A stretch of DNA of 64,000 bases from a virus: IMG/VR virus record IMGVR_UViG_3300007345_000033; one strand, 5' to 3'. The translations under genes and the position numbers were made by a program. Within the stretch, counting starts at the first letter, position 1; each line of letters opens with the position of its first letter. Positions 283 to 53,926 of the stretch are shown here, piece after piece. Under the pieces are notes generated by a model. The model did not search any database. It was not told the DNA's origin and saw only the letters and a list, made by a program, of their open reading frames with translations.

Positions 283-1026
283 ATGACTAAGAAAATTGCT
301 TATTGTTCTGATATTCATTTAGAATGGACAAAGCTGTCCGAAGGACTTCAGAATGAAGAGGGGGCGGACCTATTAATCCTGGCCGGTGATATTTGTGTCG
401 CATTCGAGGCAGAAAAGTATCTAAAGTTCTTTGAGGAAACTTGTAGTAATTTTCATCAGGTTTTGTATATTCCTGGTAATCATGAACACTATATGGGTCA
501 TATTGATGATACAGTTAGAATTCTTCGGGAGAAGTTAGGTCACATTGGTAATTTGTGTATTGCCAACAACCATGAATACGATTATTATGGTATCAAAATT
601 TGGATGGGAACATTGTGGTCAGATATGAACCGTAATGACCCTTTAATCATGGAACAATGTAGGATGACGATTAATGATTACAATCGTATTTCTTGTGGGG
701 ATGGATATACAAGAAATCTATCACCAAGCGATACAGTTAAATTGTTTGAAGAAACGGTCAATTCAATTAATTATAATGCAGATATTGTGGTAACGCATCA
801 TGCTCCTAGTTATAAAGCGACGCATCCTCGTTTTAGATATAGTACTACTTCTGGTGCTTTTTATAGTAATTTAGACGAAAAGATTCATGATTCAAATATC
901 AAATATTGGATTTACGGGCATGTTCATTACAACACTGAATTTGAAATTGGTGGCACAAAAGTTATGTCAAATTGTTATTTGGATGATATGCGACCTGAAT
1001 TCAAAATGAAATATTTTGAGATTTAA
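283..1026 (+). CDS. calcineurin-like metallophosphoesterase
   Basis: Metallophosphatase motifs present in order: D-x-H (CSDIHLE), GDxxV/D (LAGDICV), GNHE (IPGNHEHY), downstream GHVH. Paralog of 1680..2435. Confidence 0.6.
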   Translation: MTKKIAYCSDIHLEWTKLSEGLQNEEGADLLILAGDICVAFEAEKYLKFFEETCSNFHQVLYIPGNHEHYMGHIDDTVRILREKLGHIGNLCIANNHEYDYYGIKIWMGTLWSDMNRNDPLIMEQCRMTINDYNRISCGDGYTRNLSPSDTVKLFEETVNSINYNADIVVTHHAPSYKATHPRFRYSTTSGAFYSNLDEKIHDSNIKYWIYGHVHYNTEFEIGGTKVMSNCYLDDMRPEFKMKYFEI

Positions 1027-3069: not shown

Positions 3070-3339
3070 ATGAAACAGATTAAAGACGCACGTGGTTATG
3101 CATATGATCTAGTAGATAACAATTTGGTATCTGAAGAAACTATGTTGACTGCATGCTTGAAATATATGTCTCAGGATGAAGTCCTGGATATGTTGGAAAA
3201 GAATGAAATGATTCTTGAGGATGAAGAAGATGATCTTGATGCCGAGGATTGTTTTGATTATGAATTGGAAGCCGAAGTCTTTGCAGATGCAATGAAAGAA
3301 GCTTACTACAACTTTATGAAGGCTCGTGATGGCTCGTGA
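3070..3339 (+). CDS. hypothetical acidic protein
   Basis: RBS gaaaaggaaa upstream. Highly acidic C-terminal half. Confidence 0.4.
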   Translation: MKQIKDARGYAYDLVDNNLVSEETMLTACLKYMSQDEVLDMLEKNEMILEDEEDDLDAEDCFDYELEAEVFADAMKEAYYNFMKARDGS

Positions 3340-3853
3340 TATTTGGGTAATCTCTGATACCCACTTTAACCATGCCAATATTCTCAACTTTAATGATAGT
3401 ATTGGTAACCCAGTTCGATCTTTTGATAGTGTTCAAGAGATGAATGAAATCATGATTAGAAACTGGAATCAGGTTGTAAGACCTGGTGACGAAGTTTATC
3501 ATCTTGGTGATGTTCTCTTTGGCACTAACAAGAGAGATTGGATGGCTAAGAATTTCCCTAGACTAATGGGATCAAAACGGCTGATTGTTGGTAATCATGA
3601 TAATGTCAAGGAATTGACTTTGAGTGGTCACTTTCAAAAGGTCATGATGTGGCGTCAGTTTAAAGATTTAGGTCTTTTGCTGACGCATGTCCCAGTACAT
3701 CCTTCTACTCTTAAAGAAGGACGATTTGGTGATTTAACACCCATTAATGTACATGGTCATATCCACCAAAATAAAAGTCCTGAAGGACCGTACAAATGTG
3801 TTTGCGTCGAGCAGACTAATTACACACCAGTAAACATTGAGGAACTGAAATAA
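3326..3853 (+). CDS. metallophosphoesterase (short form)
   Basis: ISDTHFNH (D-x-H), LGDVLFG (GDxxD-like), VGNHDN (GNHD) and HGHIH motifs in canonical order. Confidence 0.55.
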   Translation: MMARDIWVISDTHFNHANILNFNDSIGNPVRSFDSVQEMNEIMIRNWNQVVRPGDEVYHLGDVLFGTNKRDWMAKNFPRLMGSKRLIVGNHDNVKELTLSGHFQKVMMWRQFKDLGLLLTHVPVHPSTLKEGRFGDLTPINVHGHIHQNKSPEGPYKCVCVEQTNYTPVNIEELK

Positions 3854-9847: not shown

Positions 9848-10405
9848 GTGAAACTAATGGTTGTGGGTCATGGTCGTCATGGCAAAGATACAGTATCCGA
9901 AATTCTTCGAGATCACTTTGGATTAACATTTCAAAGTAGTTCTCAGTTTTGTTGTGATTTATTTATTTTTGACGAACTGAAAGATAAGTATGGATACAAA
10001 ACTTCGAAAGAATGTTATGACGACCGCCACAATCATAGATCTGAATGGTTTGATTTGATTTGCGATTATAATAAAAATGATCTGGCCCGTTTGGGTAAGG
10101 CTTTATACGAACAATATGATGTATATTGTGGGTTAAGGAACAAACATGAGTTAGGTTCTTTAAAAAGAACAGGAATTATTGATGCAGTAATTTGGGTTGA
10201 CCGCTCAAAACGAGAACCGCTTGAATCAAATAAAAGTATGACAATAACTAAAGATATGGCCGATTATTGTATTAATAATAACGGAACCCTAGAAGAATTA
10301 CAAGTTAATGTATATAATTTAATGTTTATGCTTTCTTTAGAAAAAGAGATTAATTATGGTATTTACCGAAAAACAACTAAACGAAATAATCGAACTTTTA
10401 ACTGA
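9848..10405 (+). CDS. 1: deoxynucleoside monophosphate kinase (T4 gp1-like)
   Basis: N-terminus MKLMVVGHGRHGKDT parallels T4 gp1 MKLIFLSGVKRSGKDT (Walker A). C-terminal NNNGTLEEL parallels T4 TNDGSLEEL. Confidence 0.65.
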   Translation: MKLMVVGHGRHGKDTVSEILRDHFGLTFQSSSQFCCDLFIFDELKDKYGYKTSKECYDDRHNHRSEWFDLICDYNKNDLARLGKALYEQYDVYCGLRNKHELGSLKRTGIIDAVIWVDRSKREPLESNKSMTITKDMADYCINNNGTLEELQVNVYNLMFMLSLEKEINYGIYRKTTKRNNRTFN

Positions 10406-10862
10406 GTATGATAATAATACAAAAATTTATCTAGGTTGCGATTCTGTGGTAAACAATACTGAAGATAAAAAGAAAATGGGAAAATACGCAACTGTCGCTA
10501 TTATTCATCTAAATGGTAAAAATGGTTGTAAAATCTTCTCAAGCATTTCGTATGAGCCTGATTATGACCTTAAAAAGAATCGTCCAAAAATGCGTATGAT
10601 GAACGAAGTTATGAAAGTTTGCGAATTGTATAATCAATTGGCACCTTTGGTGGATGAGTATGATATTTCTATTCACTTGGATATTAATGAGGATGAAAAA
10701 CATGGATCTTCCTGCGCAATAAAAGAAGCGGCAGGATATGTTCTTGGAGTCACTGGCTTAACCGAAGATAAGATTAAGTTCAAGCCGCATTCTTGGGCAA
10801 GTTCATTCGGCGCTGACCGTGTTGCCAACAAGGGTCATACAGTTTATAGAAAGGCTGCTTGA
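10356..10862 (+). CDS. hypothetical protein
   Basis: 168 aa ORF overlapping the preceding gene. Confidence 0.4.
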   Translation: MVFTEKQLNEIIELLTEYDNNTKIYLGCDSVVNNTEDKKKMGKYATVAIIHLNGKNGCKIFSSISYEPDYDLKKNRPKMRMMNEVMKVCELYNQLAPLVDEYDISIHLDINEDEKHGSSCAIKEAAGYVLGVTGLTEDKIKFKPHSWASSFGADRVANKGHTVYRKAA

Positions 10863-11520: not shown

Positions 11521-11606
11521 GGGTGTGCGGTGAAGTTGGAGAGTCGCGGTGGGCTGTAAACCCACCCCTTTATGGTGAGTAGGTTCGAATCCTTCCACAC
11601 CCACCA
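11521..11606 (+). tRNA. tRNA-Tyr (anticodon GTA), type II
   Basis: Acceptor gggtgtg/cacaccc. Anticodon loop ctGTAaa. Long variable arm. T-arm aggttcgaatcct. CCA encoded. Confidence 0.7.
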
Positions 11607-11836: not shown

Positions 11837-11910
11837 GGGGCTGGTCTATGGGTAGCGGTTGATCCTTGCAAGATCGACGTCAGAGGGTTCGATTCCCTCC
11901 AGCTCCACCA
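11837..11910 (+). tRNA. tRNA-Ala (anticodon TGC)
   Basis: Acceptor ggggctg/cagctcc with G3:U70 (Ala identity pair). Anticodon loop ctTGCaa. T-arm gagggttcgattccctc. CCA encoded. Short D-arm. Confidence 0.55.
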
Positions 11911-12982: not shown

Positions 12983-13058
12983 GCTAAGATAGCTCAGTTG
13001 GTAGAGCACCTGATTAAAGATCAGGGTGTCGGAGGTTCGATTCCTCCTTTTAGCACCA
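12983..13058 (+). tRNA. tRNA with anticodon loop ttAAAga (formally Phe-AAA; unusual A34)
   Basis: Canonical cloverleaf: acceptor gctaaga/ttttagc, D gctcagttggtagagc, AC stem cctga/tcagg, T ggaggttcgattcctcc, CCA. Positions 34-36 read AAA. Confidence 0.5.
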
Positions 13059-13181: not shown

Positions 13182-13790
13182 ATGAAACTATTTATTTGTC
13201 AATTCTGCGGCAGGGAAACAACTAATCCTGGTGCCAATAAAAAACATGAGATTGGTTGTAGGAATAACCCAAATTCAAAAATTTGTGGCGGTAATAAAAA
13301 AGGGTATGTTCCTTGGAATACTGGAAAAGTGGGTGTACAAACTGCTTGGAATAAGGGTAAACCTGGAACATTTAGAGGTAAGAAACACACAGCAGAAACC
13401 AAAAGAAAGATGTCTGAGAGCAAAAAAGCATTATACGCTACTGGATGGGAGTGTATCGCTGGAAGATGTCCAAAATATGATTATGAGTCCCCTATTGCCG
13501 GAAAGATAAAGGTAGATGGTAGTTGGGAATTGGCATTTTGTGAATTTGCTGATAAAATGCAATTAAACTGGGAAAGAAATAAAAAACGTTTTCCGTACAC
13601 TAAACCAGATGGAACTAAATCTACGTATCAACCAGATTTCTATGTAAAAGAATTAAAGTCTTATATTGAAGTCAAAGGATATGAAACAGATTTAGATAAG
13701 GCTAAATGGGAACATTTTCCCGAAAATCTGATAGTGCTTCGAAAGAAAGAAATCGGTGGGTTGGATGAGTGGTTTGCTAAACCGTCATAG
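13182..13790 (+). CDS. homing-endonuclease-like protein: NUMOD3 motifs + gp4-like PD-(D/E)XK nuclease domain
   Basis: N-terminal Cys pairs (CQFCG...CRNNP) and NUMOD3-like GKKHTAETKRKMSESKK. C-terminus YQPDFYV...YIEVKG (PD...ExK) aligns with ORF 54493..54939. RBS agggag before the Met at 13182. Confidence 0.55.
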   Translation: MKLFICQFCGRETTNPGANKKHEIGCRNNPNSKICGGNKKGYVPWNTGKVGVQTAWNKGKPGTFRGKKHTAETKRKMSESKKALYATGWECIAGRCPKYDYESPIAGKIKVDGSWELAFCEFADKMQLNWERNKKRFPYTKPDGTKSTYQPDFYVKELKSYIEVKGYETDLDKAKWEHFPENLIVLRKKEIGGLDEWFAKPS

Positions 13791-13806
13791 GATTAAAAGT
13801 TCTATC

Positions 13807-13834
13807 GAGGGTTCGAATCCCTCACTCACCGCCA
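13807..13834 (+). other. tRNA 3'-half fragment (T-arm + acceptor 3' strand + CCA)
   Basis: gagggttcgaatccctc + actcacc + g + cca. The upstream partner ggatgagt forms an acceptor only with a bulge. The inferred anticodon loop would be 9 nt. Confidence 0.4.
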
Positions 13835-17962: not shown

Positions 17963-18189
17963 TGTTAATAGAATTAGTATTATCTTTTGCATTAAAATCT
18001 AATCCTGATCCAATGGATATTACATTTATGTCTTTTGAAATGCCTTCTATGGAAGAATGCATGGAAGAAGAATCTAAATTAAAAGAAAGAAGAAAATTTC
18101 TTCCGGAATATGATATAATAATTGTTTGTATTGAGACGGAAAAAGTCTTTACTTCTAAGCTTAAATAAGCTATACTATGTAAATAATAA

Positions 18190-18268
18190 AGCGAATATAG
18201 TCCAACCGGTAGGAGACAACGAACTTAAAATTCGTACAGTGTGGGTTCGAATCCCACTATTCGCACCA
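18190..18268 (+). tRNA. tRNA with Leu anticodon TAA but short variable arm
   Basis: Acceptor gcgaata/tattcgc. 3-bp D-stem as in Leu tRNAs. AC stem acgaa/ttcgt with loop ctTAAaa. T-arm gtgggttcgaatcccac. CCA encoded. Confidence 0.5.
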
Positions 18269-18286
18269 ATTCTTTGGAGATATATT

Positions 18287-18805
18287 ATGAAGCGTGTTTG
18301 TACTATTATGGTTGGGATGCCTTATTCAGGTAAGTCTACTTTGGTTGAGAAATTTCGACTTATGGATCCGAATGCATTTGTGTACAGCACGGACCGGTAT
18401 ATTGAAGATAAAGTGCAAAAACTGGGTTCAACGTATAACGATATCTTTGCCGATACGATTAAAGAAGCCACGAATTTTTGTGATGACCGTTTGGATGATG
18501 CATTTAATTATACGTCAAACAACATTATTTGGGATCAAACCAATCTTTCGCGCAAAAAGCGTGGGAAAATTACTTCAAAGATTTTATCATCTAGTGATGA
18601 TGAATGGACGTTTAACGCATGTTTTATCACCATTGATGATTTAGATGTTTGGAACCGTCGAATTACAAAACGGGTGTATAAGAAAATTCCCCAAGAAGTC
18701 TTGTTTAAGATGGAACGTAGTTTTCAGATGCCAACAATAAACGAAGGATTTGATAAAATTTCGGTATACAATATTAATGGTGAATTAAAAAGGGTGTATC
18801 CATGA
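18287..18805 (+). CDS. P-loop NTPase (putative kinase)
   Basis: Walker A GMPYSGKST near the N-terminus. The tracked ORF begins inside the upstream tRNA; start reassigned to the Met after the tRNA. Confidence 0.45.
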   Translation: MKRVCTIMVGMPYSGKSTLVEKFRLMDPNAFVYSTDRYIEDKVQKLGSTYNDIFADTIKEATNFCDDRLDDAFNYTSNNIIWDQTNLSRKKRGKITSKILSSSDDEWTFNACFITIDDLDVWNRRITKRVYKKIPQEVLFKMERSFQMPTINEGFDKISVYNINGELKRVYP

Positions 18806-20922: not shown

Positions 20923-21013
20923 AGTCCCTTAGTTTAATGGTAAAACACCCGTCTTATAAGCGGCACCGTCTCCAGATTAGAGAGCGATATGGGTTCGAAT
21001 CCCATAGGGACTA
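20923..21013 (+). tRNA. type II tRNA-like gene, anticodon loop ctTATaa (assignment unclear; TAT or shifted TTA), no encoded CCA
   Basis: Acceptor agtccct/agggact. D gttt/aaac. 4-bp AC stem. About 21-nt variable arm. T atgggttcgaatcccat. Confidence 0.4.
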
Positions 21014-21117
21014 CAAAACAATTAAAAGCGACAGATCGTAACCCAGGTCGCCTACCAAAATACGAAAGAGAAAAATGCATATAACTTGAAATGATTTGTC
21101 AATATAAATAAAGTTGA

Positions 21118-21475: not shown

Positions 21476-22480
21476 AAATTGCGAGGTATAGCTCGCTTGT
21501 CCCATGATCTTCGGGTCATGGGAATAGGGTAAGACTGGTAACAGTCCCAAAGGCAGGTTTCCTATAAACTGCCGCCAGCAATGGTCCTTCTATACAAGCT
21601 CAGAGTGGAGTTGACTCGGTTGATAGCCGAAAGCAACTCGTTGTCAGTAGAATGGCAATAGTGGAGCAAGGTAGAATTGTAGTCCGAAAGGATGTGACCG
21701 GAGCCAATCGGTGAGGTCTAATTGACTGTGGTGGTGAAGCTACGATTAACCAAACTACCGAATCTTACACTCAATGAGTAGTTACTGAGTTTGACCATTA
21801 GCGTGGAAAGGCAAAGTAGCATTACAAGAGTTGAAAGGGTAGGACCTGGAAACTTGAAGTATCGTTTAGTATCCCGCAAGGAGAAAGACAGGTGATGTGT
21901 TGTATTTTGTATCCCAAAAGGATATGAAGCAACTGGAGTGGCACATCACAGTAGGTTCGCAAATTAGCTCATTTGGTAGAGCAAAAGACGCATAATCTTT
22001 AGGTAGTGGGTTCAAATCCTGCATTTGTTTAAAAAGCAAAGTCTACTCCGGTACGTCATTAAAGACGCTTAATACCATACTCGTAAGGGAATATGGTGCA
22101 TTGAAGCTCGCAAGGCGGATGTGTTTGTTTGGAAAGAAAACGTAAACTCTTAGCGGAGTTGAACTGCTCGCAAGGCAGGCGGAAGATTGAAAGACGAGTA
22201 GTGACGTATGACACAGGAAATGCCACCTGTATAAAAAGGCAGCGTTGGAAGATACTGTATTAGTGTTCCACACAATGCAGTGGATACGTAGAGAACGTGG
22301 CTCGCAAGGCTTACGATAATGCTACAAAAGACTTCCATCTTATGCTATAATCTCAGGCTAGGCAAAACTATCTTAAAAGATACACTGTGGGCTAACTAGT
22401 AACGCCGTTGCAGTAAAATGCGAGACGATAACGATTGTAAGTGCAAATCTTACCAGTGTATCTCTTAAGATAGTTTTAAA
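21476..22480 (+). ncRNA. candidate large structured ncRNA (about 1 kb, ORF-free, GNRA/UUCG tetraloop hairpins, repeated gctcgcaaggc motif)
   Basis: No credible ORF in about 1 kb of an otherwise gene-dense phage. Hairpin cccatgatc-UUCG-ggtcatggg at 21500. Multiple c-GCAA-g and GAAA loops. Motif gctcgcaaggc at about 22105, 22160 and 22300. Flanked by tRNAs, with an embedded tRNA-like element. Confidence 0.5.
21958..22028 (+). tRNA. tRNA-like element (anticodon CAT, G33, no CCA) embedded in the structured RNA
   Basis: D gctcatttggtagagc. AC stem aaaga/tcttt with loop cgCATaa. T gtgggttcaaatcctgc. Weak acceptor (6 bp). Possibly a pseudo-tRNA or a structural domain. Confidence 0.35.
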
Positions 22481-30236: not shown

Positions 30237-30606
30237 AGGAATATAGACTAATGACTCCCTTCGGAAAACTCCCCAAAGACGTACAACGTACCATGCAAAA
30301 AGAACTGGAAAAAGGCCAGACCTTTGAAATGTTTGAATTAAACTTCCAACAATGGTTTCCGTTGAATAATATAACAAAATTTGATGATAGTCTAATATAC
30401 CGTAAGACTAAGTGATAGTGAAAAGATCGTATAGTTTTTTATGTAGTTTAAACTGTACGGTCTAACCCTAAACAATAACATATGTTATATAATAAGTGTT
30501 AAAAAAACGAATGATTAAAAATCCCCAAAAATAAACCTCAGCGAATCAACGATTGTATCAGTCGTGTACGGCGATGTATGGCCTTGAAATGGAGACTAGA
30601 AAAACA

Positions 30607-31005
30607 ATGAAATTCCACGAAATTATCCCTGGATTGATTGATGGTAAAAGGTATCGTCGCCGGAATTGGAAAGACGCCACCAGATATATCTATGCTGATG
30701 TATATACTGATGGTAGCTATGACATATGCGATAACGATTCTTTTGTTGTTGACTCATCAATTGGTAACTGGCTTACTAGCGGTTATGATGAATGGGAAGA
30801 ATACAAAGAATATCCCAAAAATCTAAGCTTTATTGAGGCATGTCGTATGGCAAAAGAAGATGGTGCTGTTGTTAGCACGGGCAGCCGTTCTAATTATGAA
30901 TGGGATGATGGTGCACTGAGAATGCAACATTCAGTATATGTTATTTTTACAGATGAATGTGTTTTTGACAAATGGCATGTTGTTTATTATAAAGGAGAAA
31001 AGTAA
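30607..31005 (+). CDS. hypothetical protein
   Basis: Internal Met of ORF 30553..31005. Confidence 0.35.
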   Translation: MKFHEIIPGLIDGKRYRRRNWKDATRYIYADVYTDGSYDICDNDSFVVDSSIGNWLTSGYDEWEEYKEYPKNLSFIEACRMAKEDGAVVSTGSRSNYEWDDGALRMQHSVYVIFTDECVFDKWHVVYYKGEK

Positions 31006-36053: not shown

Positions 36054-36563
36054 TCAGTATCCAGTAAGGTTAGAAACTTGTTCTACAGAAAGCGAACTAG
36101 GGGAAGCATAAGGATCGTCAAACGAAGTATCGTAATCGTCCGAACGTTTTTGTTCTTGGGCTTCTTTTTTGATTTCTTCGTCTTGTTCCTTAGCTTTTAG
36201 CTTTGCTCGGTAATCCATTAGACGCTTCATATTAGCCTGGACAACAGCATCCTTTTCCTGATCGGTAATAGTTTCTTTTGTCTCAGACTTTTTCTGTTTT
36301 GGGCTTGCTGTAGTAGCTACCTCAATTTTAGTTTTCTTTTTACGGGGTTTTGGGCTAGCTACTTTACGTTCCGGCATTACTCCGGTTGCTCGACCGTTAC
36401 GGACAGCCGAAGCATAATGACGACGAGCGACTTTAAGGTCACATTCAAAACCGGCTTCCAATTCAGCTTCTACGATCAGGGGAAGGACGTCTTCCATAGC
36501 CTTATCGGTGTTAGCGTTCATTACTTCGGCAACAACCGAGCGACGGGTTGGTTTGTTCCACAT
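36054..36563 (-). CDS. cassette protein: MWNRPTRRSVVA-family N-domain + Lys/Glu-rich C-terminal extension
   Basis: N-terminus MWNKPTRRSVVAEVMNANTDKAMEDVLPLIVEA is homologous to the 82-aa family. The C-terminal half is low-complexity and charged. Confidence 0.5.
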   Translation of the reverse strand: MWNKPTRRSVVAEVMNANTDKAMEDVLPLIVEAELEAGFECDLKVARRHYASAVRNGRATGVMPERKVASPKPRKKKTKIEVATTASPKQKKSETKETITDQEKDAVVQANMKRLMDYRAKLKAKEQDEEIKKEAQEQKRSDDYDTSFDDPYASPSSLSVEQVSNLTGY

Positions 36564-36966: not shown

Positions 36967-37215
36967 TCAGGCTACCTCAATTTCGGGTTCGGTAACCTTA
37001 GCCTTGGTATCAGCATAGCTTTCACCAGGAGCACGTCCATTACGAACGGCAGAACGGTATGCACGGGTAGCTTCCTTCATACCAAAACCGTCTTTCTGGA
37101 GATCGTTAGAATAAATAGCTTCAACGATCAGGGGAAGGACAGCTTCCATAGGCTGACCTTCGTTAGCAGACATAACAGAGGCGACGACAGAGCGACGGGT
37201 TGGTTTATTCCACAT
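36967..37215 (-). CDS. cassette small protein, MWNRPTRRSVVA family (copy 3)
   Basis: Paralog. Terminator gggggccgaagccccc at 36945..36960. Confidence 0.6.
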   Translation of the reverse strand: MWNKPTRRSVVASVMSANEGQPMEAVLPLIVEAIYSNDLQKDGFGMKEATRAYRSAVRNGRAPGESYADTKAKVTEPEIEVA

Positions 37216-37295: not shown

Positions 37296-37420
37296 GCGCT
37301 GGACCAACCAACTGCCAACCAACTATATACTAACCAACCAACTGCCAACCAACTATATACTAACCAACCAACTGCCAACCAACTATATACTAACCAACCA
37401 ACAACTAACCAACCAACTAA
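37296..37420. repeat. tandem direct repeats (30-bp unit x3 plus partial)
   Basis: ccaaccaactgccaaccaactatatactaa repeated three times, followed by degenerate ccaacc units. Confidence 0.8.
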
Positions 37421-37799: not shown

Positions 37800-37920
37800 A
37801 TAAGCATCGCCAACGAGAGTCAACGAGAAGGAAGAGTCTTCAACGAGAGTCAACGAGAAGGAAGAGTCTTCAACGAGAGTCAACGGGAAGGAAGGGTCGC
37901 CAACGAGAGTAAACGAAAAG
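37800..37920. repeat. tandem direct repeats (31-bp unit x3 plus partial)
   Basis: caacgagagtcaacgagaaggaagagtcttc repeated with minor variants. A C8 homopolymer at about 37750 lies just upstream. Confidence 0.8.
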
Positions 37921-38143
37921 CAAGGCGATAAACGATTTTCTTTTAACTAAAGCCTTACCTCATCTTTAAGGGATTTCGCTTTGCCTTATATATAAAAAAA
38001 CCGCCGGGAAATTTTTTGGTATCAAAAGGTCGATTAATAATAGTTTATTATAAAAACCAAGGGTCTATACTATACTAAAAGTTTTGTATCAAGCTTTAGC
38101 TATTTGTTGAATTATTACCTAAGACAAGATTACCGTACCCTTT

Positions 38144-38527
38144 TCATTCATCTGCTAAAATTTCTCCAATAATATCTTCTAGGTCAAAGTTCTTGTAAGC
38201 AACCTTCTTGCCAGTTCTATGATCAACAACACGATTATCAGGTTCATTGTAAGTCCTAACAATATCCGTGGCATTGAACCGATTTTTTTGATCCTCTCCA
38301 TAATACCACTGAACAACCTTCTTGGCAAGTATATTAAACGCTTCCTTTAGATTTCGTGATCTTTCTCTATGGTTCTGTCCGATTACAGTAATACCTGACT
38401 CAATATGAGTGATACGAACGCAGTTTTGGTGCTTATTTCGATGTTGACCACCAGCACCAGTTCCTGAAAACCAGTCTAGCTTAAAATCCTTTTTGGTCCA
38501 AGACTTATCTGGAATTTTATTAGTCAT
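38144..38527 (-). CDS. GGQ-motif peptidyl-tRNA hydrolase domain protein (ArfB/YaeJ/ICT1-like class I release factor domain)
   Basis: SGTGAGGQHRNKHQNCVRITHIESGITV matches the RF-1 domain SGxGGQxVNKxxSAVRxTHxPTGIVV, including the catalytic GGQ. 127 aa, as in ArfB. Confidence 0.6.
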   Translation of the reverse strand: MTNKIPDKSWTKKDFKLDWFSGTGAGGQHRNKHQNCVRITHIESGITVIGQNHRERSRNLKEAFNILAKKVVQWYYGEDQKNRFNATDIVRTYNEPDNRVVDHRTGKKVAYKNFDLEDIIGEILADE

Positions 38528-38838
38528 TATTCACTCATCTTTTTCACATCAAGTGGGATTGCGTTATGTAAAGCCATAAATCCACAATTCATTCCCATTA
38601 TATATGCATCTGCATCAAAGCCAAATACGTTATATAAAACGTAACGATATGATCCCTGGTCTTCTAGTTCACCTTTTACAATACGGCTAACTACCGAGTA
38701 GAATGCCTTCATTTGGTCTTCCTTCGAAAGACTTTCCCACCAGGCGTCCATTTCTTGTTTTTCTTGTTCGATTAATGCTTGAAATTCTTGAGTTTGATCA
38801 GACAATTTTTGCATAATATTTTCTTTATCATTAGTCAT
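38527..38838 (-). CDS. hypothetical protein
   Basis: Coupled ORF (ATGA). Confidence 0.4.
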   Translation of the reverse strand: MTNDKENIMQKLSDQTQEFQALIEQEKQEMDAWWESLSKEDQMKAFYSVVSRIVKGELEDQGSYRYVLYNVFGFDADAYIMGMNCGFMALHNAIPLDVKKMSE

Positions 38839-39461
38839 CTAACAAAAGCTCCTATTCTCCCATTTAACTCTTTTGAATCAATAAACTTATACCCCATCGG
38901 TGGAACTTTATTTTGACCTTCCCATACAGGTATAAACTCCTTTATTCCATTATCAAAGTCAACATTTCTTCTGAAATGCACTTCAATTAGTTTGCCACCA
39001 ATAAATTCACAGTTAATAATTTCTTTATTAGAAAACTGATTTAGAATAGACGGGAACGGTATGGTTTTGTCTGTTTTAATCCAACGATCCCAACGGGTCA
39101 TTGTATTTTCTTTTTTGATACCTTTGACACACAACGTCTGCTTTCCATAAACATAATCTACACTTAGATGATCACCTTCGAAGAACTCTGACCAAAAATG
39201 TCCCACAGGCATGTTATCCGTTGTGTTTTCTATCCAAACCTTTTTGGCCCCCATACCAAGGCCGAGTGCATTAACACAAGGTCTGACGATATACCAATCT
39301 GGTTTCGGCACCCTTTGTCCCACAGGACCGCAGATGTAATTTAGTTTTCTGGATAGAATAAGTTTATCCATAACCCACATTTCATCTGGATCGGCATTCA
39401 TCCAGTAGTATTCTTCTGGACAAGGTTCTGGAAGATCAAATTTCATATCCCTTAACACCAC
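38835..39461 (-). CDS. hypothetical protein
   Basis: 208 aa, coupled ORF. Confidence 0.4.
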   Translation of the reverse strand: MVLRDMKFDLPEPCPEEYYWMNADPDEMWVMDKLILSRKLNYICGPVGQRVPKPDWYIVRPCVNALGLGMGAKKVWIENTTDNMPVGHFWSEFFEGDHLSVDYVYGKQTLCVKGIKKENTMTRWDRWIKTDKTIPFPSILNQFSNKEIINCEFIGGKLIEVHFRRNVDFDNGIKEFIPVWEGQNKVPPMGYKFIDSKELNGRIGAFVR

Positions 39462-39724
39462 CAGTTTATTTGGTCAAACTGATTTTCCTCTTTATCAATT
39501 TTATTTTCCAGCTCCACCGCCAAATTTCTCATTTTATATTTAAAGTTTTTATAATAATCCATCATCATATAATGAATATCTTCAACTAACTTGGGATTGG
39601 TCACCAGGATCAGAGTATCGGAAACTGTAAGTATGATATATTCTTCTCCAATTTCAGGTTCAGTAATCTCTCCGCATATCTTTCCCGGAAAATATGTTAA
39701 ATCATCTATATATGGATAAATCAC
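39452..39724 (-). CDS. hypothetical protein
   Basis: Coupled ORF. Confidence 0.35.
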   Translation of the reverse strand: MIYPYIDDLTYFPGKICGEITEPEIGEEYIILTVSDTLILVTNPKLVEDIHYMMMDYYKNFKYKMRNLAVELENKIDKEENQFDQINWWC

Positions 39725-40035
39725 CGAAGGTGATAATCCGTCGTCATAGTTCGTTCCGTAGGTTCTTACCTACGCCGAATACTTTCTTGGTTCGTTAGTT
39801 ACCTTACCCAAAATTTTTAGTTTCTTTATTTCAATCATAAATCAATCATATTTCTTGATACCATATTAAGTATGATGTAACTGAAAATCATTCCCAATAT
39901 GAATCCCGTGACTAGGCCTAAAAATAATCCAATAAAAAATACCATCAATCGTCCTTAAAAAAATCCAGGTAAATTAACGTAAATGCCGCGCCAAATAATA
40001 TTGTATAGTATATAATAAGGAAAATAATACCCATA

Positions 40036-40410
40036 TTATCTCAGGGCTTCTTCATAATATCGAATAACATCATTTTGTTGTGATACATAAGCCTTTAATT
40101 TGGCCAAATTCACCGAAAGCCTTTCATAGTCCTTGACCGTGATAGCAACATATGAAGCCTTTGGATCCTTAACCAAATAGGTTTCAAAAAACTCTTTATA
40201 GTTACCACCGTTAATAACTTTGATTCTTGGTGGGGTTAAATTTGGAATCTCTGGCCTAACCGCCAATGGTACTTGAATTGGTACGGCCTTCTCAATAACT
40301 ACTGGAGGGCTTGCTAATGCCGTCCCTTGGGGTTTGTTGGTAGCCACTCCACAGCTAGTTAGAAGGGCCAGTGAAATCAAAGAAATTATTAAAAGTTTCA
40401 TTCGTTGCAT
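40036..40410 (-). CDS. lipoprotein (candidate o-spanin)
   Basis: Signal peptide with lipobox LLTSCG. Start lies inside the 3' end of the upstream membrane/coiled-coil gene. Confidence 0.4.
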   Translation of the reverse strand: MQRMKLLIISLISLALLTSCGVATNKPQGTALASPPVVIEKAVPIQVPLAVRPEIPNLTPPRIKVINGGNYKEFFETYLVKDPKASYVAITVKDYERLSVNLAKLKAYVSQQNDVIRYYEEALR

Positions 40411-40768
40411 TTTGCATTCTCTTTTCGATTAGTGTTGGTTTCTTAATGGATAAATCAGTCAAATCGTGTTTATTTAATTTTTCTTGTAAAACTCTAACCC
40501 TTCCATTGGAAGCCGTCAAATTTTGTTGCAATTTATTGTTTAGCTCTTCATATTTTTCAATTGAGTCTTTGAGGCTGTTGATAGTCTCTACACTACTCTC
40601 AACATTTCTGACCAAAACTCCATTGTCACTTAAGAGTTGAAGATATTGCGACTTTAAGTTTTTGGTTGTGACCTGATTATAAACATTCCAGCCTGTCATT
40701 CCAATTAACAGTGTTATTAATACTTTTGTGAAGACTCCACTGAAAACTTGCTTTAAGAGTAAAAGCAT
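40355..40768 (-). CDS. N-terminal TM + coiled-coil protein (candidate i-spanin)
   Basis: TM segment VFTKVLITLLIGMTGWNVY followed by a heptad-rich periplasmic region. Overlaps the downstream lipoprotein gene. Confidence 0.4.
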   Translation of the reverse strand: MLLLLKQVFSGVFTKVLITLLIGMTGWNVYNQVTTKNLKSQYLQLLSDNGVLVRNVESSVETINSLKDSIEKYEELNNKLQQNLTASNGRVRVLQEKLNKHDLTDLSIKKPTLIEKRMQNATNETFNNFFDFTGPSN

Positions 40769-40990
40769 TTTCTTTTTCCTTATTTGAAAATTAAGTATAT
40801 TATAATTTATATAAAGTGAAATGTAAAGATATTTTTATGTACTCTTGATTGTTTTTTTGGGTTCTGATGCTTTTTGAGTTCTCCTTAAAATTTATTTTAA
40901 TTTTTTTCTGATTATATCTATTTTTTTCTTTACTTTTCTCCAAAGCTTTAGTATAATCACTTTGTGGTAAATGAAATAATAGATTAGGAG

Positions 40991-43994: not shown

Positions 43995-44385
43995 AAAAAA
44001 CAGTTGATAACTTATAAAAATTCCTTTACTTCTAAACTAAAATTAAATATACTATATAAATAATAAGCGGATTTGATTATCAGATTCTAAAAGTTATTCA
44101 GGACACGGGGGCAGTTCCCGTCGTCTCCACCAGAAGAGTATTGGTTATCAGGGTTGGAATAAACCTGGTGTAATAGATTTTCCAAACGTCCAGTACTCTT
44201 TTGATGGGGACGATTCAGGTTCGACTGGTAATAAGTAAGTTCTCTGTAGAATACGCTATTTAAAAATAAATGCTAACGATAACTTCAAAGCATTTGATTA
44301 CGCCTTAGCTGCGTAATCATTGGGCGGCCACTGCCTCGAAACAGAAGTGTGGCATTATTTCCTAAAATTTTATGAAAGGTTTAAC

Positions 44386-44754
44386 ATGAAAACATTTTTG
44401 ATTGCAACTACTGCATTGGTAGTTTCAACAACAGCAGCCTTGGCTGGTGGAATGCAACCAGGCGTTTGGTCTGGTGAGGCTTTTGCAGAATATGGGGTAA
44501 ATGCCCAAGATGTAACACTTGGAGGCGGTGTTGCTTATGATATCAACTCAGTTAGCTTGTGGACTGAAACTGAACTTCAAGTAGCTCAAGAAGTTGATTT
44601 GACTTTGAGTGATGTTACCTTTGGTGCAGATTATGCAATTCTACCTCAAGTAGATGCGTATATGGCATTTGAGTTTGCTGGTAATCCAGATGCAGCTAAT
44701 GGTCTTGGGGTTGAATATAATGAAACTTCAATTGGCCTTCGCTACGAGTGGTAA
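44386..44754 (+). CDS. secreted small beta-barrel outer-membrane-like protein
   Basis: Signal peptide MKTFLIATTALVVSTTAALA. Alternating hydrophobic pattern. C-terminal ...GLRYEW (terminal aromatic, typical of OM beta-barrels). Terminator ggggagcttcggctcccc at 44762..44779. Confidence 0.45.
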   Translation: MKTFLIATTALVVSTTAALAGGMQPGVWSGEAFAEYGVNAQDVTLGGGVAYDINSVSLWTETELQVAQEVDLTLSDVTFGADYAILPQVDAYMAFEFAGNPDAANGLGVEYNETSIGLRYEW

Positions 44755-53296: not shown

Positions 53297-53926
53297 TTAA
53301 TAAGTCACTAAAGGATCTTTCAATCCACCGCCTTCTATGGTAAACTGAGAATAAGTTATTGAGGTTGCAAGGCGTATTAAATCGCCTTTATCGTTCCATG
53401 CTAATGGCATTTCCAACAAAGAAGAAGGGAATGCTTCGTATAGATTTATCTTTTTAACAATATTTCCGACCTGGTCATATAAAAATATTTGCATGGTACT
53501 TGTGTATTCACTTTTATATTTTGAAACATATTTTGGTATTCTAATTCCGGATTCCGAACCATTAAATTCAAATATAGTTCTCATCCAATCATACCAAAAA
53601 TGTAATAGATCGGCCTTTTTATCTAATAAGATAGAAAAAGTTGTATCGTGATAATATGAATTGAATGGGATCTTTTGGGTTGGACCAAATCCGAATCTTT
53701 GTACTTCAGCGGAAAGTAAAGAAACCCCAGGTATTTTTACTTGATCAATTCTATATCGTAATATGTCATTGGTTACATTAAAGAGGGACTTTTCAGTTCC
53801 ATCATAACTTTCTAGTTTTTTATTTTGTAATATTGGCGGAATTGATAATGCAACCTCAAATGCATGAGGTTTTAAATAGCCATATCCGCTTATATTAGAT
53901 TTAAAATTGTTTAGGTTAAATCCCAT
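53297..53926 (-). CDS. hypothetical protein (gp3-like by position only)
   Basis: 209 aa. Occupies the position of gp3 in the T4 3-2-4 / 53-5 divergent arrangement. No motif verified. Confidence 0.3.
   Translation of the reverse strand: MGFNLNNFKSNISGYGYLKPHAFEVALSIPPILQNKKLESYDGTEKSLFNVTNDILRYRIDQVKIPGVSLLSAEVQRFGFGPTQKIPFNSYYHDTTFSILLDKKADLLHFWYDWMRTIFEFNGSESGIRIPKYVSKYKSEYTSTMQIFLYDQVGNIVKKINLYEAFPSSLLEMPLAWNDKGDLIRLATSITYSQFTIEGGGLKDPLVTY

Follow-up and report, generated by a model that had tools for sequence, protein, structure and literature searches.

To our knowledge, every characterised GGQ release protein carries a ribosome-targeting module, and we know of no GGQ domain that acts anywhere but in the ribosomal peptidyl-transferase centre (RF1/2, ArfB, ICT1, PrfH and mtRF-R). 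The targeting modules are of several kinds. RF1 and RF2 carry a stop-codon reader, and their domain 4 normally packs on domain 2. ArfB and ICT1 carry a basic mRNA-channel probe; in ArfB a flexible linker is followed by a strongly basic C-terminal helix that probes the empty mRNA channel. PrfH (RF-H), the partner of the RNA ligase RtcB2, reads the damaged decoding centre and rescues ribosomes with cleaved 16S rRNA. Lastly, the mitochondrial mtRF-R (C12orf65) works with a split-subunit partner, and its basic C-terminal extension binds tRNA and MTRES1. Among rescue systems, tmRNA, ArfA and ArfB all require an empty mRNA channel, and stalls on intact mRNA are handled poorly.

Stand-alone RF-1-domain genes have already been annotated in phages, for instance McGee gp209 (PMC9583779), and are also carried in JGI and NCBI protein names. 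Morgado and Vicente (2018; PMC5966550) described RF-domain genes together with PTH2 and tmRNA in mycobacterial tRNA arrays and suggested that they provide extra rescue capacity. The huge-phage survey of Al-Shayeb (2020; PMC7162821) lists “RF1 and RF2”, Iyer et al. (2021; PMC7824862) set out the RNA-repair logic of jumbo phages, naming PTH2 and no RF domain, and Burroughs and Aravind (2019; PMC6514570) did not treat phage RF-domain proteins. The role proposed below follows the logic of Iyer et al., and in cells it has a parallel in PrfH-RtcB (PMC9304027). A full-text literature search returned annotation-level mentions only and no experimental work on stand-alone phage RF-1-domain proteins; in the same search we did not find the architecture or the quantitative linkage to tRNA arrays reported below described. 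Here we analyse one such gene from a 64-kb window (the whole stretch of viral DNA that was examined, 64,000 nucleotides) and the family to which it belongs.

Results

A GGQ-domain gene in a T4-like phage

The gene is a minus-strand open reading frame at 38144-38527 that starts with ATG and encodes 127 aa, stop codon included in the interval; the plus-strand frame across the same interval is riddled with stops. An earlier reading of this DNA, made from the sequence only, had given the exact interval, the length and the GGQ signature, to which the minus strand has to be added, and the motif that it quoted, SGTGAGGQHRNKHQNCVRITHIESGI, is present in the protein. It had also proposed a check for the RF-1 domain, and this came out clearly positive: Pfam PF00472 matches residues 12-104 with E=4.3e-19 and 69 bits, against a cutoff of 35, so the match is far beyond chance. 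Across several samples in ENA and JGI, 19 metagenomic contigs encode the protein unchanged, and its neighbours are always the same. Given the intact reading frame, the domain match and these 19 contigs, we conclude that this is a real gene of a natural phage population. In an AlphaFold2 model (mean pLDDT 83.8) the protein consists, in order, of three strands, a 21-residue helix, a 22-residue irregular linker (residues 77-98), a small hairpin and a C-terminal helix. Its parts map to the DNA as follows:

38300..38494, minus strand: GGQ domain, equivalent to RF1/RF2 domain 3 (three strands and a long helix), residues ~12-76
38452-38444, minus strand: codons GGT GGT CAA of the GGQ tripeptide, residues 26-28, read from the sequence
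38147..38266, minus strand: RTYNEPDNRVVDH hairpin and acidic C-terminal helix, homologous to RF1/RF2 domain 4, residues ~88-127

The window covers part of the genome of a T4-like myovirus, including genes for gp32, gp59, gp5, gp6, gp53, DNA ligase, NadR-like and NAMPT proteins, PstS and Band-7, and its gp32 is about 60% identical to those of the cyanomyoviruses P-SSM2, P-SSM5 and S-SRM01. At the nucleotide level, a megablast of 30-50 kb of the window against 50,697 GenBank phage records returned no relative.

The protein corresponds to domains 3 and 4 of RF1/RF2

Judged by its alignments and fold matches, the 127-aa protein is domains 3 and 4 of an RF1/RF2-type factor minus domains 1 and 2. 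Across sequence profiles and fold searches the similarity is highest by far to RF1/RF2, then to mtRF-R, then to PrfH and, far below these, to ArfB/ICT1. Among NCBIfam models RF1 ranks best (8.9e-20, RF1 positions 212-321), followed by RF2 and PrfH. In a phmmer search of PDB sequences the single protein aligned to Thermotoga RF1 through RTYNxPxNRVxDHR, and a profile of 53 family sequences matched RF1/RF2 with E~1e-21, reaching their C-termini. The alignments end, by phmmer and by profile, at RF1 residue 322/333, and in RF2 they take in residues 236-362 of 365. With the same profile, mtRF-R/C12orf65 was matched at 3e-13, PrfH at 3e-10 and ArfB at 2e-4 in two fragments. Foldseek against the PDB placed RF1/RF2 (domain 3) at the top and PrfH and mtRF-R next, and neither ArfB nor ICT1 was among the best 50 matches.

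At the N-terminal side the protein begins where domain 3 begins, and its alignment to RF1 starts from about residue 190-220. Domain 3 with the GGQ and domain 4 (RTYNFPxxRVTDHR and the C-terminal helix) are present according to the alignments and fold matches. Domains 1 and 2, with the PxT or SPF stop-codon motif, are missing, and a Pfam scan of the 127-aa protein gave no PCRF-domain match. Scores against the prfA models (71 bits versus cutoffs of 400 for NF001859 and 423 for TIGR00019) and the prfB model (56 bits versus 370) are far below threshold. Because the domains that carry PxT or SPF are absent, stop codons cannot be read by the phage protein. A split release factor, with domain 2 encoded by a separate PCRF gene, was also considered and rejected, as clustering of the neighbours in 82 loci turned up no such gene.

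PrfH is likewise a poor fit. The PrfH model TIGR03072 gives 48.6 bits versus a cutoff of 166.65 and covers only PrfH residues 102-177. We also found no PrfH-RtcB-type pairing: no RtcB turned up in the neighbour clusters that were examined in the 82 loci or in those open reading frames of the window that were scanned; other RNA-repair genes recur.

The sequence-only reading had assigned the protein to the ArfB/ICT1 type, and four independent tests (equivalog score, profile, insertions and tail charge) reject this. The ArfB equivalog NF006718 scores 15.9 bits versus a cutoff of 100, and the match is confined to the GGQ motif (residues 12-39). In an hhalign comparison with E. coli ArfB, the insertions of the ArfB GGQ domain appear as gaps of 6 and 17 residues in the phage family, and the alignment stops at ArfB residue 107, short of the basic tail. 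Charges over the last 30 residues add up to a net -2, versus +9 in E. coli ArfB; across the phage family the median is -1 (range -7 to +3). With a neutral or acidic tail and no insertions, the basic-tail, mRNA-channel mechanism of ArfB is not transferable to the phage protein. The size on which that assignment had drawn is indeed close (127 versus 140 aa), but size by itself is uninformative.

A family carried almost entirely by phages

The 127-aa protein fits a family, here called the phage short-RF family, whose signature is a stand-alone gene on viral contigs encoding about 120-150 aa with KDFxxxWFSGTGAGGQHRNKHQNC…RTYNxxxNRVxDH; it aligns to the other members over its full length at 47-90% identity and has the invariant core. 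A word-indexed search found 2616 homologs, of which the best 120 are all of 115-168 aa with a single RF-1 domain. An exhaustive profile search over 1.84 billion cluster representatives (50% identity) gave 10,400 matches at E<=1e-3, a number that includes ordinary release factors, and 29 at E<=1e-30. Of the 150 top-ranking cluster representatives, about 140 have a length of 65-200 aa. In IMG/VR, relatives lie on 270 viral contigs, many of them of 140-520 kb, and the architecture is constant in phages of 30-520 kb.

Cellular occurrences are rare. When 185,579 prokaryotic species, each represented by one genome, were scanned with a pattern as seed, at least 32 loci were confirmed, and the best cellular loci among the matches listed look like mis-binned phage on MAG contigs; one of these, L087, is 144,548 bp long, exactly as long as a viral contig in IMG/VR. 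The family is thus almost entirely phage-borne, with very few cellular genomes. Forms of intermediate length, with a remnant of domain 2, occur in Gemmobacter and Pararhizobium.

Fifteen positions are invariant in the alignment of 53 sequences (47-90% identity). These include G26, Q28 and a family-specific Cys36, as well as R30, N31, N35, R38, R56, N59, A63 and R91; at least 90% of the sequences share G27. A close homolog, P0002, has GEQ in place of GGQ.

In PHROGs the name “RF-1 domain peptide chain release factor” is given to two families, which match the 127-aa protein over the GGQ core only (phrog_3122, E=1e-7, residues 9-69). In BFVD, stand-alone GGQ proteins of 64-83 aa occur in T4-like Acinetobacter phages and ones of 107-136 aa in Vibrio, Pseudomonas, Mycobacterium, Aeromonas and Rhodococcus phages. 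Among the 50,697 GenBank phage records there is no relative of the 127-aa protein closer than 41% identity.

The gene and its surroundings in the window

The features of the window that bear on the gene are the following:

3326..3853, plus strand: gene for a small calcineurin-type phosphoesterase
10356-10862: window homolog of the RNaseH_like family PF04308
11521..22554, plus strand: tRNA array, 21 tRNAs by both ARAGORN and Rfam, up to 24 with single-method calls
18122..18805, plus strand: gene for an AAA_33 P-loop polynucleotide-kinase-like protein
38144..40827, minus strand: putative transcription unit ending in the RF gene, with a promoter-like site at 40827-40799 and a weak precomputed Phage_T4_Spanin match
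38527..38838, minus strand: gene for a 103-aa protein upstream of the RF gene, its stop overlapping the RF start as TAATG
38835-39461, minus strand: phrog_3577 gene of the same unit
39452-39724, minus strand: further gene of the unit
40036-40410, minus strand: gene for an o-spanin-like lipoprotein
40355-40768, minus strand: i-spanin-like gene
44026..44407, plus strand: permuted two-piece tmRNA with tag ANDNFKAFDYALAA, found by ARAGORN and by Rfam (RF04321, 94.7 bits; RF01849, 86.2 bits)

ARAGORN finds 24 tRNAs and the one permuted tmRNA in the window, and Rfam finds 22 tRNAs, namely 21 in common with ARAGORN and an extra one at 13755-13831. The ARAGORN-only calls at 11521, 11837 and 53538 are below the Rfam threshold, and that at 53538 lies inside an open reading frame. 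The count of 25 or more tRNA genes given earlier was therefore roughly right, if overstated. The statement that the gene is next to the tRNA set was loose: 15.6 kb separate it from the end of the array (22554), and the two are on opposite strands. The tmRNA, absent from the earlier account, adds another ribosome-rescue element at a distance of 5.5 kb from the RF gene. Interspersed in the array are the NadR-like, NAMPT and AAA_33 kinase genes, homing-endonuclease genes and a GOLLD RNA; the true start of the kinase gene is probably downstream of a tRNA-Leu at 18191-18268. SmpB, PTH2, RNA ligase, DSP phosphatase and HD_4 were not found in the 64-kb window, either among those of its open reading frames that were scanned or by tblastn with representatives of the neighbour clusters.

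Around the RF gene itself is an accessory region full of small open reading frames. The RF gene looks translationally coupled to the 103-aa gene and is apparently co-transcribed with the spanin-like (lysis) genes. The promoter-like site is an 11/12 sigma-70-like match in a divergent intergenic region, where the total of such matches is not above the shuffled expectation. As conserved partners, both near neighbours were rejected. The 103-aa gene has a homolog in one other locus only (L032), 4.3 kb from the RF gene, and outside the same phage population the 103-aa and phrog_3577 genes occur at just one distant locus. Stop-codon recoding was likewise considered as a role. The genes of the window use the standard code and end in all three stops (TAA 40, TGA 29 and TAG 12), and there is no suppressor tRNA in the window, so such a role is unlikely.

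Linkage to tRNA arrays and RNA-repair genes across phages

For a wider view of genomic context we sampled 80 IMG/VR loci with 10 kb on either side of the RF gene and clustered the neighbours de novo in 82 loci. A tRNA gene lies within 10 kb in 55 of the 80 loci, within 1 kb in 29 and within 500 bp in 15. Nearly all of these tRNAs are co-oriented with the RF gene (696/734, 95%), and in many loci the gene is inside the array. On contigs of at least 100 kb a tRNA is within 10 kb in 19 of 23 cases versus about 15% expected (p~1e-12, binomial, under a crude random-placement null). tRNA arrays sit in hyperplastic accessory regions, so part of this linkage could reflect a pile-up of accessory genes rather than shared function.

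The recurrent neighbours include RNA-repair genes. A CX5R DSP-PTPase of the “Swiss Army Knife” RNA-repair type is found in 25 loci, an AAA_33 polynucleotide-kinase-like P-loop kinase family in 17 and a small calcineurin-type metallophosphoesterase family in 16, the latter two within 10 kb of the RF gene. Less frequent are an RNA-ligase-like gene, identified by motif only (9 loci), an HD_4 hydrolase (8 loci), the RNaseH_like family PF04308 (7 loci) and PTH2 (6 loci, plus L001 and L003). The commonest neighbour family is found in no more than roughly one locus in three. Among long relatives the closest is L001/L004 (210 kb, 65% identity), where the RF gene lies between T4 Rnl1 and two tRNAs, with PTH2, HAD_SAK_2, Macro, NADAR, NadR/NAMPT and Gad2 within 10 kb. 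Another locus (L003) has ribosomal protein S21, ClpS, Hsp20 and PTH2 as neighbours. In Gemmobacter caeni, an array of 23 tRNAs includes the gene for a related short RF with a domain-2 remnant, which follows immediately on a PTH2 gene. Lastly, 17 loci of a distant subclade have, next to the RF gene, a gene for a conserved protein of 76 aa whose C-terminus is basic. This linkage to tRNA arrays and to RNA-repair and PTH2 genes fits a role in translation stress or counter-defence.

Discussion

From the domain identity and architecture of the protein, its conserved catalytic motif, a family that is almost confined to phages and the genomic linkage of that family with tRNA arrays and with RNA-repair genes, we propose that the phage protein is a codon-independent, ribosome-dependent peptidyl-tRNA hydrolase in a toolkit for translation maintenance and counter-defence. 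We consider this reading somewhat likelier to be right than wrong; its hydrolase activity, substrate and timing are what we infer. That the GGQ domain is predicted to be catalytically competent is well supported. The GGQ loop would enter the peptidyl-transferase centre of a ribosome with a free A site, and its insertion would bring about peptidyl-tRNA hydrolysis with no need for a stop codon; as there is no decoding domain, any activity must be stop-codon-independent. Ribosomes stalled in infection, for example after host nucleases have cut tRNAs or mRNAs, might be freed in this way, and the release protein would belong to the same kit as phage tRNAs, tmRNA, PTH2, enzymes that heal and ligate RNA ends, and NAD+ salvage. 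The idea that the gene serves under translation stress had been put forward from the sequence before. It gains from the stand-alone GGQ domain, from the tRNA-rich phage genome with its tmRNA and from the linkage in the 80 loci, and it loses the ArfB/ICT1 type as its vehicle. Several observations weigh against our proposal: PTH2, DSP phosphatase and RNA ligase are missing from these 64 kb, the RF gene of the window is off the array, on the other strand and apparently with spanin-like genes, and P0002 departs from the GGQ motif.

A release factor that acts independently of codons and without regulation should do harm, so selectivity of some kind must exist. We found no ribosome-anchoring or stall-sensing element in the phage protein, the tail of which is neutral to acidic. 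Its targeting might involve a dock at the decoding centre that leaves the codon unread, a partner protein, or action on split 50S subunits.

The alternative that survives best, although we think it fairly unlikely, is that the protein is a partner-dependent release module, that is, a catalytic domain only, which a second factor would target. Such a factor could be a small basic-tailed adaptor, as ArfA or BrfA is for RF2, or a partner on split 50S subunits that still carry peptidyl-tRNA, as MTRES1 is for mtRF-R/C12orf65. The 76-aa protein of the distant subclade is a candidate adaptor. Its gene, however, is not in the 64-kb window, the coupled 103-aa gene is not conserved with the RF gene, and no neighbour accompanies the RF gene in more than about a third of loci.

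A further suggestion, which we regard as speculative and probably wrong, is that the protein is a new class of rescue factor for vacant-A-site stalls on intact mRNA (“hungry codon”). Such stalls would arise when host anticodon nucleases or other tRNA-depleting defences remove a tRNA. Domain 4 and the remnant of the switch loop might dock at the decoding centre, leaving the codon unread, and with phage tRNAs, PTH2 and tRNA repair enzymes the ribosomes could be cleared and reloaded.

It is quite improbable, in our view, that the protein manipulates host translation, whether by competing with RF1/RF2, by titrating PrmC or by premature release on host messages, so as to favour phage translation. 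Remodelling of host translation is common among phages, such a role would suit a catalytic domain that has no decoder, and the flank of the GGQ motif (GGQHRNKHQNC, with the invariant Cys36) diverges from cellular release factors. The genomic context, however, shows nothing specific to shut-off, the neighbours being PTH2, kinase and phosphatase, ligase and tRNAs, and the catalytic core is fully conserved, which argues for catalysis and against a decoy role.

We give very little credence to rescue of the ArfB/ICT1 type, in which ribosomes that have stalled at the 3' ends of truncated mRNAs would be entered, through their empty mRNA channel, by a basic C-terminal helix tethered to the GGQ domain. 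The similar size, the stand-alone GGQ domain and the rescue-themed genomic context are what one would look for, and the linker at residues 77-98 superficially resembles that of ArfB, but family membership is already refuted by the four tests above. Weakest of all, and close to negligible, is the view that the gene is a drifting, functionless fragment of a captured release-factor gene: it does look like a truncated release factor in an accessory region full of small open reading frames, yet there are thousands of homologs of similar length whose catalytic residues are invariant at 47-90% identity, the protein is unchanged on 19 contigs, and the architecture is constant in phages of 30-520 kb.

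The family is without the known targeting modules, yet its catalytic core is intact and it is found in tRNA arrays beside PTH2 and RNA-repair genes. Identifying the target of the family would reveal which translational damage large phages expect in infection, and it might show a new way of recognising stalled ribosomes. It would also supply the missing “release” step in the tRNA-supply-and-repair model of phage counter-defence. If the protein proves to be a plain codon-independent hydrolase, the outcome is an annotation correction, in that the RF1, RF2 and ArfB labels are wrong for these genes.

Compared with known systems, the phage short-RF protein is, by their defining features at the sequence level, not ArfB, RF1/2 or PrfH, although it very probably acts as a GGQ peptidyl-tRNA hydrolase. 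With RF1/RF2 (PrfA/PrfB), the closest by sequence and fold, it shares the GGQ domain, the long helix, RTYNxPxxRVxDH and the C-terminal helix. It differs from them in being one third of their length, in being shorter by 7-10 residues in the region of the post-GGQ helix and switch loop, in the GGQ flank (HRNKHQNC versus HVNTTDSA in RF1) and in missing domain 2, the surface on which domain 4 of RF1/2 packs. PrfH keeps a domain-2-like module that reads the damaged decoding centre, whereas the phage protein is without any. mtRF-R belongs to an organellar rather than a phage lineage, and we identified no MTRES1-like (S4-like) partner for the phage protein. In common with ArfB (YaeJ) and ICT1 it is a stand-alone GGQ protein of ~130-140 aa that is presumed to be codon-independent; outside the GGQ motif the similarity is marginal, and ArfB is widespread in bacteria whereas the phage short-RF family is almost restricted to phages. 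Lastly, the RF-1 families already annotated in phages and tRNA arrays likewise consist of a decoder-less GGQ domain, often with PTH2 and tmRNA, but many of them are just 64-83 aa long, and the phage short-RF family additionally retains an RF1/2-type domain 4.

Surroundings of the release-factor gene

The putative minus-strand unit that contains the gene for the stand-alone RF-1/GGQ domain protein (the RF gene) is headed by two overlapping genes (40036-40768) that, judged by their sequence features, look like an i-spanin and an o-spanin lipoprotein; a precomputed match to Phage_T4_Spanin is weak. Just downstream of the RF gene, in minus-strand sense, are two separate 30-bp repeat arrays that give rise to spurious repetitive ORFs.

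40355-40768, minus strand, i-spanin-like gene with an N-terminal transmembrane segment and a coiled coil
40036-40410, minus strand, o-spanin-like lipoprotein gene with lipobox LLTSCG
37811-37924, 30-bp tandem-repeat array, 3.8 copies, 90% matches
37303-37413, 30-bp tandem-repeat array, 3.7 copies, 96% matches

A series of small genes occupies 32.9-37.2 kb on the minus strand (for example, 36054-36563 and 36967-37215), and several of these are paralogs that start with MWNKPTRRSVVA…VLPLIVEA. Each of the two terminator-like hairpins in the scanned stretch (36963-36944 and 36051-36032) directly follows a gene of this series. In locus L116, four 82-aa copies of these paralogs are called.

Relatives of the RF gene in other genomes

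In a distant subclade, the RF-domain gene of 17 loci has as its direct neighbor the gene for a conserved protein (cluster 3; about 76 aa); among these loci are L035, L043, L046, L047, L057, L060, L062, L066, L068, L069, L076, L078, L080, L082, and L083. The protein has no Pfam match; it carries the pattern …VGxFGVDSxxDGxCPDGxxYxWxK, and its C-terminus is basic (ASRIGRVKKERV or RR). We propose it as a candidate adaptor for the RF-domain protein.

The chromosome of Gemmobacter caeni DSM 21823 has an array of 23 tRNA genes, all in one orientation (locus L089; NZ_QBKP01000002.1, 578-12623), which pairs an RF-like ORF with PTH2, a peptidyl-tRNA hydrolase type that recurs near the RF gene.

7189-7605 of L089, PTH2 gene within the tRNA array
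7890-8363 of L089, RF-like ORF of 157 aa, directly after PTH2, with a domain-2 remnant kept

This ORF looks like an intermediate between the PrfH-like form and the minimal phage form, and the tRNA/PTH2/RF array is possibly carried on a mobile element.

Some relatives bear bacterial labels. The sequence containing L001 and L004 (IMGVR_UViG_3300028603_000019; 210,571 bp) is named “MAG: Anaerolineaceae bacterium” at NCBI, as in the name of the protein homolog P0010. Because it shares T4-like phage genes with the window (NAMPT, 58% identity; Band_7, 66%; RF, 65%) and is classed as viral in IMG/VR, this contig probably belongs to a phage that was mis-binned. L087, from a “Melioribacteraceae” MAG, matches a viral contig of IMG/VR in length and looks like a second such case.

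tRNA array and accessory genes

The tRNA array of the window harbors a full-length GOLLD RNA, within which a tRNA-Met is enclosed, and a NAD+ salvage gene pair is embedded in the same array.

12983-13058, tRNA-Phe with the unusual anticodon AAA
14693-17127, plus strand, NadR-like (CTP_transf and NUDIX) and NAMPT genes
20923-21014, tRNA-Ile(UAU), 92 nt
21892-22359, plus strand, GOLLD RNA (Rfam RF02032, model positions 1-416; 224.5 bits, gathering score 150)
21958-22030, tRNA-Met inside the GOLLD RNA

The RF-bearing loci L055, L066, and L083 have tRNA-Ile(UAU) genes of similarly great length, and the NadR-like/NAMPT pair is also found near the RF gene in L001. One tRNA (13755-13831) is called by Rfam alone; the ARAGORN calls for tRNA-Tyr (11521-11606) and tRNA-Ala (11837-11910) are without Rfam support. 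The 95-nt tRNA-Lys called by ARAGORN at 53538-53632 is likely spurious, given that it falls inside an ORF and has no Rfam support. No tRNA for Ser or Glu was called in the window.

Three calcineurin-type metallophosphoesterase genes lie within 4 kb of each other.

283-1026, plus strand, paralog of the next, about 250 aa
1680-2435, plus strand, paralog of the preceding, about 250 aa
3326-3853, plus strand, member of a family repeatedly found close to the RF gene in other loci

At 30553-31005 (plus strand) there is a borderline match to the Tad2-like domain of Thoeris anti-defence (PF11195; 24.2 bits versus a cutoff of 25; E = 5e-5).

A phage-encoded tmRNA

The window also encodes a tmRNA of its own.

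44026-44407, plus strand, permuted (two-piece) tmRNA with tag ANDNFKAFDYALAA; best Rfam matches tmRNA_permuted and alpha_tmRNA

No SmpB was found among the window ORFs scanned. In L064, another RF-bearing locus, a tmRNA lies 4 kb downstream. The tag of the window's tmRNA is alphaproteobacterial in style, in contrast to the gp32 of the same window, which is cyanomyovirus-like.
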